The notes below the pieces were generated by a model. That model saw only the letters and a program-made list of their open reading frames with translations, had not been told where the DNA came from and ran no database searches. Positions 51,435 to 58,406 of a DNA stretch of 64,000 bases are shown piece by piece. The stretch spans positions 597 through 64,596 of the forward strand of contig JBAXUB010000005.1 in the NCBI GenBank assembly GCA_037129895.1, in the 5' to 3' direction. Source of the DNA: Candidatus Tayloriibacteriota bacterium. Its GTDB lineage: Bacteria > Patescibacteriota > Minisyncoccia > Phycocordibacterales > PALSA-1337. The first letter of the stretch is position 1. Each line of letters starts with the position of its first letter. The translations under genes and the position numbers were made by a program.

Positions 51435-51945
51435 GTTTGTATTTTACCAAATTTTTCAGAAAGCAAGAAATATTTTTTACATAAATCAGTGCATAAACAG
51501 TTAACAACTAAGCTCTCATCGAGAAGCGGTCGACTTTCGCTTCTTCTCACAGTAGTTTCTTCACGTCTCGCACATATCTGTATGGCGGACGCGCCCCACG
51601 ATTGCCCTAGCAACGGTGGGAAGCGCGGGAGCCGTTCTGGTATGTGCGTATGGCGTGCCACGAGACTCTGTAGAAGCGGAAGTGGGCCGCTTCGAGTCAC
51701 TGTGGTGTGTGTTTGTGTTTAAAAATAAAAAGTAAAAGAAGGTGAGTACCCATCTGGTCCTCAACCGCACCCTCATTTTTTCTCCGCATTTTCCTTTTGC
51801 ATTTGTAACGAAAATTCCCAAAAACGTGAGCAAAGATGCGGGCGGGGCGGAAGGGGGGTTTCAGGGGGGAATTCCGCCCCGCCCTCCATATTCTGCGATT
51901 CTTTCGCCTTTTTCGGGCGATTCTGCGATTTTTGCGAAATTGCTG
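49877..51945. mobile_element. IS-like element. A large serine recombinase gene is bounded by ~180-bp terminal inverted repeats (49877..50057 and 51757..51945). It is inserted at the 3' end of tRNA-Gln.
   Basis: The two ends are near-identical in inverted orientation. The left IR starts inside the tRNA 3' end (CAGCAA), and the right IR ends with TTGCTG. The IR carries an internal GC hairpin at 49936..49984. Confidence 0.6.
51521..51695. repeat. Family C intergenic repeat, copy 2
   Basis: It is homologous to 6234..6406 along its whole length and shares the terminal hairpins. Confidence 0.6.
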
Positions 51946-52150
51946 TCGTTTTTGAATGAAGTTCGAACGTTTTTCGCTGAAAATCCTCAAAATTAAGGAA
52001 GTCAGGCGGCACGGCAGGAGGGGTGTGGGGAGGAATGCCGTGCCGCCTTCCTACTGTTTTCTTTCTTTTTTTTCCGTCATGCACCTTGTGGAGCTCGGAC
52101 GATGCGGAACTCTTGTGTGGGGCGAGCTGTTTCCGCACGTCCTCGCGGGG
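51939..52150. repeat. ~210-bp repeat B, copy 1. It contains the hairpin AGGCGGCACGGCA-loop(GGAGGGGTGTGGGGAGGAA)-TGCCGTGCCGCCT at 52004..52048.
   Basis: The reverse-complement copy lies at 58197..58406, with only a few mismatches (~95% identity). Confidence 0.65.
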
Positions 52151-52236
52151 GATTTGGAGGACGATTTGGATTGAAATACTGTTAGAGATACGATTAGTTT
52201 ATACACAGCCCATATAAAGACTTTTGAGTATAAATC

Positions 52237-55200
52237 ATGGTATTATTTATTGTATGTATGAGCTTGATCACACACACACACACACACACACACACACACA
52301 CACACCGCAGGTCCTCAAATATTGTATCGCGGTTGCATGAAATTAAGAGAGTACTAACTCCCTCTAAAAAATTCTACGCTGCCATTCTTTCCAGTATATT
52401 TTTTGTAGTTTGTATTTTTTCTTTTGTTAATGTCGCAAGGGCAGATATTACGACGGGATTGATAGGTCATTGGACGTTTGATTCGGCTGATACTAATTGG
52501 GCGGGAAATACAACAGCAGACATATCGGGTAGTAACAATACAGGTACACTAACAAATTTTTATTCAGCCACGAGTACAACAGGCGGACATATTTATGAGT
52601 CATTATCATTTGATGGAAATAATGACTATGTGTTAGCGGGAACTATTGCGGGAGGTACAATTACAGGATCTGTTTGTTTTTGGGTAAAAAGATCTGGAAG
52701 TAAGGCAAATCCTCAACTCATTAATTTTACCGCTAATGGAGGAACAGGGTTTGTATACTTGTATACCAATAATAGTACGATTGCCAAGACTTCAGGTACT
52801 GTATATGTGGATAGTCAAAGAACTACCGCTTTCCCAGGTGACGGTGAATTTCATAATGTTTGCGTTACGGGTATGTCTATTGTTTCAAATGGTAACACTT
52901 ATATTGGAGCAAATTCATCAGGAACCGGATCGTGGCTAGGTCTGCTTGATGATTTCCGCATTTATAATCGCACGCTTTCTGCAACAGATGTAGCTCAATT
53001 ATATAATACTGGATTTACGCCAATTGTTACCACTTCAGGTGCCTCATCGATAACCGATATTTCAGCTACTCTCAACGGCTCCACAGATATGGCTAATGCA
53101 GCTTCTTCTACTAGTCGTGGTTTTGCATACGGCACAGATTCGACTTTAAGTACAGTCATAGCTACAACAACTGAAGCAGGTGGACCATTTGGTTCTGGTG
53201 TTTTCACTCAAAATATTTCAGGTCTGACGGAAAATACAACATATTATTTCAGAGCATATTCTGCAAATGCTACGTCCACAGGTTTTGGAAGTATTTTATC
53301 ATTTACATCAGGTGTTCCTGCTTCAGTATCTCCGCCGTCACTTCTTGAGGCTAATTTTTCTCTAATCACTCAAGTATCTGCTGTAGCTTCTTCTACCATC
53401 ACATCTGTCGGTGGATCTAACGTATCAAATCGTGGTTTTGCATATGGTACAGACTCTACTTTTGCCAATGTCATTGCTACAACTACAGAAACTGGTGATT
53501 TTGGAACTGGTCAGTTCAGTAGCAACCTCACATCACTAATTTGTAATACTACATACTATGTTCGCGCTTATGCTGTAAATTCTTACGGAACCAGCACAGC
53601 TTCGTCAGCCAACTTCACCACATCACCATGTGTACCAAGTATACCAACTAGCGTCTCTGCTGTTAGTACATTACGTAATCAAGCCACAATCACATTCACA
53701 CCTGGCTCCGATGGTGGTTCATCCATCCTATATTACTTAGCTTCATCTACTCCGGGAAACATCACAGCTACATCTACAGGTTCACCTATTACAGTTACAG
53801 GACTTACAAATGGAGTCGTATATACTTTTCAAGTTTATGCAGTGAATGCAGTCGGTACTAGTACTCCCTCAGTCTTTTCTAATGCGGTTACTCCAGATGC
53901 GACTGCTACAGGTCTCGGTGGGCATTGGACATTCGATACTACAAATACCAACTGGTTAGCAAGTACCACAGCTGATAGTTCTGGTAATGGTAATACGGGT
54001 ACGCTAACTAATTTCTATTCTTCGACGAGTACAGTAGCAGGTTTTGACAATCAAGGGTTATATTTCAATGGCGGAACTGAATATATTGACGCTGGAACCG
54101 GTCAAGGTTTGAGTCCAACATCAGCAATTACTATATCTACTTGGATCAAGCCTATAGGAAAAAGTAATTCAAATTATCTTGCAGTGGTAGGGAAAAAAAA
54201 TAGTTATTTTCTTGATATACGAGACGATGGTATTATTTTGTTTTATTTAACTGGAGTAAAAAATTGGCTTACACAAACGACAAGTGATAAAAATCTATTT
54301 GATGGAGTCTGGCACAATCTGGTTGCAAAATATGATGGATCGATTCAGTCTATTTATATCGATGGTTTATTTATTGCGTCAACAACAGCAACTGGAAACA
54401 TTAATACGAGCTTTGATAATTTGCAAATTGGCAGAAGGGGGACGACAATACATTATAAGGGTTCAATGGATGATGTACGTATTTACAGTAGTAGTTTAAC
54501 GGAATCAGAAATACAATCACTTTATCTAAGCTATGGTCAAACGCGTACCCCTCAAACATACTACATATCTTCAACTTTAGGTAATGATGAAAATGATGGT
54601 CTTTCGGAATCTACTCCATGGCAAAATATTGATAAGATCTATAAAATAGCTTCGCTTCCTTATGGATTTGTTCCAGGAGATCAGATTTTATTGAAGAGGG
54701 GTGATACTTGGGAAGGTCAAATTCGACTGGATCGTATAATAGGGACAGGATCAGATCCGATCACTATTGGTGCTTATGGATCAAATTCGGATCCAAAACC
54801 GATTATATACGGAGATGGAAGAAATTTAACATGGACTGCAGTCGATGGCTATTCAGGGGTATACGAAGCGAATATTGGAGCAGGGAGTAATATAACGAGC
54901 GTATTTGAAAATAGTACAGCTTATACTTCTGGTACTTCTGGAAATGTCTACACTCTTTCCCCGGGACAGTGGGGTGTAAAACCTTTCGGACGTAGTGATC
55001 TTGTATGGATACGTACTCAAGATGGTGGTTTGCCAAGCAATATCAGAGTGTTTCGCTATACGACAATTTCTATGAAAGATAGCGAAAATATTGTTATTGG
55101 AAATCTTGATTTACGAGAGACATTTATTGCCATTTATGCCTATGGATCCGATTCAATTACTTCACGAAATATAAATACACTTAACACATTAGATAGTGCA

Positions 55201-58008: not shown

Positions 58009-58017
58009 GAGGTTCTC

Positions 58018-58162
58018 GAGAAGCGGTCGACTTTCGCTTCTTCTCACTGAAATCTATTCGTGTTCGGAGGAAGTCGGTTCGGCGATTAGCCGTACGGACT
58101 GACGACGAATGCGCCACTAAACTATATGGAAGCGGAAGTGGACCGCTTCGAATGATTTGATG
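58018..58162. repeat. Family C intergenic repeat, copy 3 (termini conserved, interior divergent)
   Basis: GAGAAGCGGTCGACTTTCGCTTCTTCTCAC ... GGAAGCGGAAGTGGACCGCTTCGAA. Confidence 0.55.
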
Positions 58163-58196
58163 AAATACGTTTTGAAATATTTTGAACCCCGCGAGG

Positions 58197-58406
58197 ACGG
58201 TGCGGAAACCTTTTGCCCCACACAATAGTTCCGCATCGTCCGAGCTCCACAAGGGCATGACGGAAAAAAAAGAAAGAAAACAGTAGGAAGGCGGCACGGC
58301 ATTCCTCCCCACACCCCTCCTGCCGTGCCGCCTGACTTCCTTAATTTTGAGGATTTTCAGCGAAAAACGTTCGAACTTCATTCAAAAACGACAGCAAGAT
58401 TTTTTT
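58197..58406. repeat. Repeat B, copy 2, in inverted orientation
   Basis: It is the reverse complement of 51939..52150. It ends with the same ...AAAAACGACAGCAA junction that abuts the right IR of the recombinase element. Confidence 0.65.

Follow-up and report, generated by a model that had tools for sequence, protein, structure and literature searches.

Positions 49878-58397 of a 64,000-nucleotide stretch of a Candidatus Tayloriibacteriota contig (JBAXUB010000005.1; hereafter the window) probably constitute an 8.5-kb integrative island of the large serine recombinase (LSR) family, lodged between the 3' end of a tRNA-Gln(CTG) gene and its T-run. The original prediction had read a 6-kb segment of this region, which carries a giant gene and a small winged helix-turn-helix (wHTH) partner gene next to the recombinase, as a possible invertible or mobile module. 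On the best reading, this segment is the cargo compartment of the island. Read along the tRNA strand, the tRNA is followed by arm a, the antisense LSR gene, a structured RNA candidate that we call X, and the reverse complement of a; the reverse complement of arm b adjoins it directly, followed by the giant gene, the wHTH gene, a further copy of X, arm b and the T-run (Table 1). The two a arms form inverted repeat A (IR-A) and the two b arms form inverted repeat B (IR-B).

Chance cannot have produced IR-B. In a self-comparison, its outer parts (51940-52082 and 58255-58397) are 143 nt long and 100% complementary, and an inner continuation (52084-52138 and 58200-58254) adds 55 nt at 91%; a single BLAST alignment spans 212 nt at 96.7% (51940-52150 against 58397-58187). 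The repeat pair of the original prediction is real, with its distal copy (B2) at 58187-58397 rather than 58197-58406: positions 58398-58406 (GATTTTTTT) have no counterpart to the left of 51940 and so lie outside IR-B. The arms do enclose the giant gene and its wHTH partner, as had been noted, together with a hairpin and a structured element. The claim that B2 ends in the same junction sequence that abuts the recombinase-side repeat at the proximal copy (B1) was also borne out, as B2 ends in ...AAAAACGACAGCAA followed by GATTTTT and the reverse complement of the junction between the proximal A arm and B1 reads ...AAAAACGACAGCAA followed by TTTCGC. That prediction had missed both IR-A, which surrounds the recombinase (198 nt, 97.5%), and the fact that IR-A and IR-B abut, sharing 6 nt. 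These are the reverse complement of CAGCAA, a core common to all three junctions (the distal copy being 58392-58397).

The B arms are 211 bp long, intergenic and contain no credible open reading frame (ORF). Each A and B arm is predicted to form a hairpin, with a GC stem of 13 bp and a C- or G-rich loop of 19 nt, at symmetrical positions 56-103 nt from the core, and part of the B hairpin sequence is 96% conserved even between diverged subfamilies. Along the + strand, B1 presents a tRNA-mimicking half-site at its outer end, then the stem and loop, and then a U-rich tract. The motif at the end of b occurs in only three copies in the window, all of them at element ends (6628-6683, 51940-51998 and 58339-58397).

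Table 1. Features of the island and of a second element in the window. ORF, open reading frame; LSR, large serine recombinase; IR, inverted repeat; att, attachment site.
Feature	Position	Strand	Basis or remark
Second element, right end	6169..6683	+	hairpin, X1, inverted hairpin, B-like arm ending ...AAAAACTGCCGCAA
tRNA-Gln(CTG)	49810..49881	+	ARAGORN; Rfam tRNA 57.8 bits; complete
LSR ORF	49821..51434	-	537 aa; Pfam PF00239, PF07508 and PF13408
Core of attL-like junction (tRNA/a)	49878..49883	+	...GTCCCG CAGCAA TTTCGC...
IR-A distal arm (a, or P' arm)	49878..50074	.	13-bp GC stem, 19-nt loop; overlaps recombinase 3' tail
X2, structured RNA candidate between LSR start and IR-A	51513..51702	+	nhmmer, covariation
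IR-A proximal arm (reverse complement of a)	51748..51945	.	repeat comparison, BLAST
Core of internal attP-like site S2 (b/a)	51940..51945	-	...AAACGA CAGCAA TTTCGC...; equals the IR-A/IR-B overlap
IR-B proximal arm (B1, reverse complement of b)	51940..52150	.	BLAST, self-comparison, fold
Giant secreted or surface protein gene, cargo	52237..57390	+	ORF, 1717 aa; Laminin_G_3, fn3, CarboxypepD_reg
wHTH partner gene, cargo	57444..57971	+	175 aa; AbiEi_4, HTH_DeoR, HTH_24
36-nt hairpin 3' of wHTH gene, TGTGGCTCA..TTGAGCCACA	57974..58009	+	repeat family and sequence
X3, short X form without central hairpin	58010..58158	+	nhmmer
IR-B distal arm (B2, b), P-type half of attR-like site	58187..58397	.	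BLAST, junction alignment
Core of attR-like junction and GATTTTTTTATG, presumed original post-tRNA T-run	58392..58410	+	...AAACGA CAGCAA GATTTTTTTATG...
Arm GC hairpins	49939-49983, 51840-51884, 52004-52048, 58289-58333		fold

The recombinase has the domain composition of a serine integrase, with Resolvase, Recombinase and Zn-ribbon domains (Pfam E-values of 1.9e-20, 1.4e-11 and 5.2e-07) and, in its translated N-terminus, the catalytic serine motif YTRKSTDTEDRQ. It is distant from LSRs of solved structure, its sole PDB match being the catalytic domain of 3g13 (E 1e-6). Its conserved portion covers approximately residues 1-467 (50031-51434), and the residues past about 467 are not conserved in Ser-type relatives. 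The reading frame stays open to 49821, spanning the entire distal A arm and, in antisense, the tRNA-Gln gene. The last 4 nt of this tRNA gene overlap IR-A. A scan of IMG/VR returned only one relative of the recombinase, which argues that elements of this kind are not phage hallmarks.

The geometry of the junctions suggests how the arms relate to attachment sites. The outer end of b resembles the T-arm and acceptor of the tRNA (GTTCGAACTTCGTCCAAAA.ACACCGCCA in b against GGTTCGAATCC....CTCCGCCA in the tRNA), and both contain a TTCGAA-like motif, which may be the outer motif bound by the second DNA-binding domain of the enzyme (DBD2, or ZD). From the end of this motif to the point where b and the tRNA diverge, we count 16 nt in b (28 loci) and 11 nt in the tRNA T-loop (28 loci); where the absolute distances vary, the difference is still 5, and the window itself gives 16 and 11. 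For serine integrases, the motif of the second DNA-binding domain is known to lie about 5 bp nearer the center in attB than in attP (PMC11722253). Applying this spacing rule, b classifies as a P-type half-site and the tRNA 3' end as a B-type half-site, that is, the left half of attB. It follows that the junction of tRNA and a corresponds to attL, that of b with the outside to attR, and the internal junction of b and a to a complete attP. Two copies of an approximately 200-bp P arm of the element's attachment site are thus the best explanation for the two B repeats. B2 would be the element half of attR and the distal A arm the element half of attL, and B1 together with the proximal A arm would form a second full attP-like site, inverted and placed between the divergent LSR and cargo genes. 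A T7 run follows the core directly in the window, and several relatives have a hairpin and a T-run downstream of the distal B arm, as expected if this were the original terminator of the tRNA.

The arrangement extends well beyond the window, as this family of LSR islands is widespread in Patescibacteria. Among 8000 candidates scored, 7407 were homologous to the LSR at E ≤ 1e-10, and all homologues with a source name are labeled Patescibacteria, including Taylorbacteria, Giovannonibacteria and Moranbacteria. Using the LSR homologues, we drew 80 loci from species-representative genomes and compared each to itself (individual loci are cited below by L numbers). Nearly all 80 contain an IR-A pair of about 50-200 bp (mostly 120-200) at roughly 80-100% identity (mostly above 90%). 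On the 5' side of the LSR gene, at least 18 loci have an abutting IR-B pair of about 60-434 bp (mostly 200-350) at mostly 95-100% identity, bracketing 1.5-6.5 kb; with at least 9 kb of upstream sequence to inspect, the frequency is about 17 in 30. The A and B repeats overlap by 3-9 nt in most of the loci with IR-B and by more in a few, and the junction cores of relatives likewise have 3-9 nt in common. A tRNA 3' end faces the 3' end of the LSR gene in 63 of the 69 loci with room for one (tRNA-Ser in 53, tRNA-Gln in 9 and tRNA-Lys in 1), and the orientation of the LSR gene relative to the tRNA is the same in all 63. The outer 60 nt of B are conserved throughout the family and adjoin the proximal A arm in almost all loci, even where no distal copy is in view. 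The proposal that the recombinase element had inserted into one copy of a pre-existing B repeat is not supported: the b/a junction stands beside the LSR gene in nearly all relatives, and the left neighbor of the element is a tRNA, not B.

At three loci (L013 at about 11552, L046 at about 11485 and L047 at about 3577), the distal A arm abuts sequence other than a tRNA (..GGGTACTTAACCCGACTAGCCCGCA and variants), and neither ARAGORN nor Rfam finds a tRNA there. ARAGORN also calls a tRNA-Ser with anticodon ACT in L036 (11676-11763), L037 (11819-11908), L041 (11692-11779) and L076 (11647-11734), in each case on the opposite strand and about 70-235 nt from the target tRNA-Ser(GCT).

Cargo varies freely within conserved arms. 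The genes between the B arms of different loci are unrelated, and most are transcribed away from the b/a junction. In relatives they encode an HpaII endonuclease with a C5 methylase-RadC fusion, a TdeIII endonuclease with an N4/N6 methylase, D12 methylases, an OLD-like AAA_15 ATPase, DUF6119, a GT1 glycosyltransferase with T5orf172, a trypsin-like peptidase, SOUL and others. Elements with different cargo nevertheless have B arms (about 200 nt) that are 90-98% identical (L028/L039, L034/L036 and L025/L040), and B therefore belongs to the backbone and not to the cargo. L104 occupies a tRNA-Gln site in the same CTP synthase, FtsX and RF-1 neighborhood as the window and carries a reverse transcriptase, a helix-turn-helix protein and a helicase. 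As in a tRNA-targeting genomic island, the tRNA 3' end is intact, the site is conserved and the cargo is variable. The combination of giant protein and wHTH gene seen in the window recurs only in L012 and L013 among the loci derived from LSR homologues. The wHTH gene has a paralogue at 5598-6167, and homologues with the same downstream X and b are present in L012 and L085-L096.

These data suggest a path by which the island may move. The element would have entered between the tRNA-Gln 3' end and the terminator of that gene, the LSR catalyzing an attP x attB exchange inside CAGCAA. Excision by attL x attR exchange would yield a circle joining B2 to the distal A arm, in which two inverted copies of the roughly 400-bp b/a region would separate the LSR and cargo segments, much as in the 2-micron plasmid. 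The GC hairpins of the arms, which in B1 are followed by a U-tract running into the cargo, may shield the element from transcription that starts outside it. Some relatives look as though the internal attP had recombined with another tRNA gene and parted the LSR compartment from the cargo: in L050 and L054 the LSR segment lies between two inverted tRNA-Ser genes, and in L094 an orphan wHTH module sits within a 219-bp IR-B, with no LSR within 10 kb. The internal attP seems usable because these loci match the two products expected from such a reaction.

Several points weigh against the island as drawn. Integration of a circle that has two equivalent attP sites should produce two isomers, and we see only one; the circle model must be incomplete unless one isomer is selected against. 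The model also leaves the reason for the duplicated arms unexplained. Of the loci with 9-10 kb of sequence upstream, about 40% lack IR-B or have an incomplete one. In Ser-type elements, the minimal common core is CCG or CCGC, which does not pin down the central dinucleotide; taking GC as this dinucleotide, the b and a motifs are symmetric at 18 bp, yet the attR of L048 reads CCGA. We identified no candidate for a recombination directionality factor and saw no circular form, the joint of which would look identical to the internal b/a site. The predicted empty attB, with tRNA-Gln joined directly to GATTTTTTTATGCC, was sought with the 21-mer AAGTCCCGCAGCAAGATTTTT spanning the tRNA-Gln/T-run joint and gave 0 exact matches in metagenome contigs; because no empty attB was found, insertion is argued from comparative anatomy alone. 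Searching for exact matches to the proteins of the NYN and 304-aa genes in the flank returned nothing useful on element-free contigs, and pairwise comparisons of all loci yielded no element-present and element-absent pairs, only three homologous cargo pairs. Finally, in L086 (1118-1250) and L087 (800-3000) the distal b of a giant/wHTH module is followed by an a-like arm, an arrangement that needs tandem accretion or another process. In L087, this a arm is followed by a frameshifted reverse-strand LSR pseudogene of another subfamily with a b-like site on its 5' side in direct orientation; this unit is a simple a-recombinase-b element without inverted repeats.

Somewhat speculatively, the islands could represent an undescribed class of LSR elements in which a 320-550-bp attachment region (P arm, core and P' arm) is kept in two inverted copies, the internal attP is active and X takes part in control. 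If so, compartments could flip, separate, swap between elements or recombine with other tRNA genes, rearranging these tiny chromosomes. We rejected on mechanistic grounds a single-stranded DNA dumbbell in which the arms refold into a double-stranded attP, as in CTXphi, because concerted double-strand exchange by a serine recombinase would leave hairpin-capped chromosome arms.

The same repeats invite the reading that the adjacent LSR flips the 6-kb segment and thereby varies expression of the giant surface protein. Its appeal is plain: the repeats are long and near-perfect, with 143 identical outer nucleotides, every arm has an LSR half-site beside the shared core, and within most elements the arms are at or near 100% identity and differ between elements, suggestive of ongoing exchange. 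Several observations speak against it. The enzyme is a 537-aa LSR and not a small invertase of the Hin/Gin type (about 190 aa with a C-terminal helix-turn-helix), and the sites in the B arms are P-P' and P-B', which serine integrases do not ordinarily bring together in synapsis (PMC11722253). Equivalent arms bracket whole restriction-modification operons and further cargo that would gain nothing obvious from being flipped. In about 9-10 giant/wHTH modules, the end with the wHTH gene is distal, and none is flipped; this was judged with the LSR in view in window element 2 (numbered from the left), L012 and L013, and from the junction of b with the flank in window element 1, L090, L092, L095, L096 and L100, L086 being ambiguous. 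The flipped state was defined as wHTH-X-b/a followed by a recombinase gene on the same strand, and the one exception in a flank is L087, with its reverse-strand recombinase pseudogene. The three homologous cargo pairs each share one orientation, and the orientation of the LSR gene relative to the tRNA is invariant. The consensus assemblies contain no inverted isomer, though they would hide a minority orientation. Nor is a separation of promoter and gene evident, because the 87-nt leader from B1 to the first ATG is itself part of the segment and would turn with the gene; scans for sigma-70 promoters and terminators near the two arms performed no better than shuffles.

We therefore consider a site-specific inversion switch very unlikely, and IR-B is probably not an on/off switch of the giant gene. 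Of the original prediction of an invertible or mobile module, the mobile half stands, with the segment as cargo of an LSR island whose relatives carry other genes in the same B arms, and the invertible half is not supported. Against the suggested invertase or shufflon layout stand the class of the enzyme, the non-canonical site pair, the lack of a flipped giant/wHTH module in the assemblies and the fixed orientation of the LSR gene, and against the idea that inversion would move the gene relative to outside promoters stand arms that lie outside ORFs and a leader that would travel with the gene. Slipped-strand phase variation is a more plausible switch than inversion: a (CA)18 tract lies close to the 5' end of the giant gene (52269-52304). 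The tract falls between upstream ATGs (52237 and 52258) and a signal-peptide-like N-terminus (KRVLTPSKKFYAAILSSIFFVVCIFSFVNVARA), and a TTG at 52333, 3' of the tract, is a possible alternative start.

Inversion might also occur passively, if the arms are duplicates of attachment sites and RecA-type recombination or gene conversion occasionally inverts the cargo to no regulatory purpose. Such events would have adequate substrates in arms that are 200-430 bp long and completely or almost completely identical, arm identity is higher within elements than between them, and in the window only the inner ends of the two repeats contain mismatches. Such a mismatch gradient from the core inward is, however, not general: we considered it across loci and discarded it, L012 and L052 being mismatched near the core. 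No inverted isomer appears in the consensus assemblies here either. We regard passive flip-flop as unlikely; it is compatible with the island and does not exclude it.

Could the LSR and cargo segments instead be two independent modules, bounded by a and its reverse complement and by b and its reverse complement, each excising as a circle with a perfectly palindromic joint and lying side by side at one tRNA? Each compartment is indeed bounded by inverted repeats of its own that end at the core, the orphan cargo of L094 and the LSR-only segments between tRNAs in L050 and L054 look like separated modules, and fusion of two such circles at the core would yield exactly this layout. L041 (JBAXFJ010000001.1, 140-11582) further holds five abutting segments bracketed by inverted repeats, in a chain ending at a tRNA-Ser gene. 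(The same chain contains at least two LSR paralogues, one pair being 77% identical over 1.5 kb, and a 191-bp perfect direct repeat.) Against this, in about 50 loci the proximal arm of the LSR segment never abuts plain flank, its neighbor being b or, in four, a tRNA, and a junction of tRNA with the reverse complement of b is never seen. Independent excision would require a palindromic central dinucleotide and non-canonical site pairs, and the B arms are backbone common to cargo types. This scenario, too, strikes us as improbable, on a par with the regulatory switch.

Finally, the inverted copies could be mis-assembled, or could be insertion-sequence copies that mobilize the segment. Assembly at these loci is indeed difficult. 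Two other assemblies of this genome, from short reads, break in or near the repeats: L001 stops at window position 51853 in the proximal A arm, and L002 stops at 58007, just upstream of X3 and about 180 nt before B2. Many relatives likewise stop 200-600 nt upstream of the LSR gene, and the repeats are a cause of assembly fragmentation here. The layout nonetheless recurs across dozens of assemblies that are independent of one another and come from different assemblers; long-read assemblies and a chromosome-titled record are apparently among them. As for a composite transposon, which had also been proposed, the 211-bp B arms contain no transposase ORF and are backbone attachment arms common to the elements. 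Either origin is scarcely credible.

X is a conserved element of about 175 nt and a candidate structured RNA. It occurs in the window in two full copies (X1, 6226-6412, and X2) and one short form (X3), all on the + strand, and in relatives in L003-L018, L085-L096, L104 and L105. A 21-bp closing stem (GAAGCGG-N7-CCGCTTC at both ends) would enclose two inner helices with many compensatory changes. In an alignment of 15 sequences, pairing is seen in 94.8% of cells and compensatory changes in 18 of 44 pairs; 0 of 500 shuffles reach such values, and slid controls pair at about 40%. U-G pairs place X on the + strand, divergent from the LSR gene. Rfam searches of the window and of the attachment-site/X region returned tRNAs and noise only, and no family for X. 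In the tRNA-Gln and CCGCAA-core subfamilies, X lies between the LSR gene and the proximal A arm, and again 3' of the wHTH gene; in the cargo of the window (X3) and of L012, the copy has no central hairpin. Hairpins of 36 nt (TGTGGCTCA..TTGAGCCACA) occur at 6169-6204, 6424-6459 and 57974-58009. The two that flank X1 are mutual reverse complements, loop included, so that X1 sits between short inverted repeats, and the same arrangement is found in L087.

The window contains part of a second element (1-6683), likewise missed by the original prediction. It comprises a giant gene (16-5592), a wHTH gene (5598-6167), X1 and a B-like arm, and its outer flank is homologous to those of L012 and L092; its LSR gene would lie upstream of the window start. 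Beyond it, direct repeats of about 700 bp, 86-91% identical (6852-7545 and 11772-12708), bracket a tRNA-Met gene (7582-7654), an RNHCP-domain gene, two radical-SAM genes (one with SPASM) and GrpB. The block may be a further insertion or duplication.

On the island reading, the giant genes for surface proteins travel horizontally as cargo in these episymbiotic bacteria and are not phase-switched by inversion, and their variation likelier stems from the (CA)18 tract. The family would then be an abundant, apparently undescribed group of small tRNA-targeting LSR islands that ferry restriction-modification, defense and surface genes among Patescibacteria. Their attachment sites can be read directly from genomes by the tRNA-mimicking P arm, the 5-bp shift and the short core, which makes them a convenient supply of natural attP/attB pairs. 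How serine integrases choose their sites becomes a concrete mechanistic question in view of the duplicated inverted arms, which may also help explain why metagenome-assembled genomes break at these loci. We did not find twin inverted attachment arms, a tRNA-mimicking P arm or the two-compartment structure in the searchable literature, and the duplicated-arm architecture appears to be undescribed.

Among known systems, the closest parallels are phiC31, Bxb1, A118, SPbeta and LSR islands, which share the enzyme with Resolvase, Recombinase and Zn-ribbon domains and a short shared junction core. As in phiC31-type elements, the outer motif on the element side is 5 bp further out, the LSR gene lies beside the attachment site and the cargo is accessory. 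Unlike them, the elements described here have attachment arms of 120-430 bp present twice and inverted, keep an internal attP-like site and consist of two repeat-bracketed compartments; they target a tRNA 3' end that the P arm mimics and have neither phage genes nor a recognized directionality factor. Tycheposons (10.1101/2020.12.28.424599) are also small elements at tRNA sites in reduced genomes, with variable defense or adaptive cargo, arrays and a minority of LSRs. They differ in relying mostly on tyrosine recombinases, in their direct repeats of partial tRNAs and in their host phylum, and no inverted-repeat compartments are described for them, since 'inverted repeat' appears only in the reference list of that work (10.1101/2020.12.28.424599). 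SCCmec resembles the islands in that its ccr-encoded LSRs mobilize variable cassettes at the 3' end of a conserved housekeeping gene, with tandem accretion; its target is rlmH, its end repeats are short and imperfect, and it has no internal attP or compartments.

The yeast 2-micron plasmid, with FLP target sites (FRT) in 599-bp inverted repeats, parallels the circle that we propose, in which two long target-bearing inverted repeats would separate two unique segments. FLP is a tyrosine recombinase, however, and the plasmid, itself a replicon, amplifies its copy number by means of the flip; there are no replication genes here. The Hin, Gin, Cin and Pin switches and the R64 shufflon share with the window a recombinase gene (serine-type in the switches) beside a surface-protein segment bracketed by inverted repeats. 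Their enzymes are invertases of about 190 aa (or the tyrosine recombinase Rci) acting on 19-26-bp sites with an enhancer, none of which is present here, and their flip alters a promoter or the 3' end of a gene, which is not the case here. The Rci shufflon has multiple short sfx sites and alternative C-terminal segments, whereas the window has only two intergenic arms and, in its 46-64 kb part, no tyrosine recombinase. By its enzyme, core and half-site geometry, the element is a serine-integrase integrative island and not an invertase system, a shufflon or a composite transposon.

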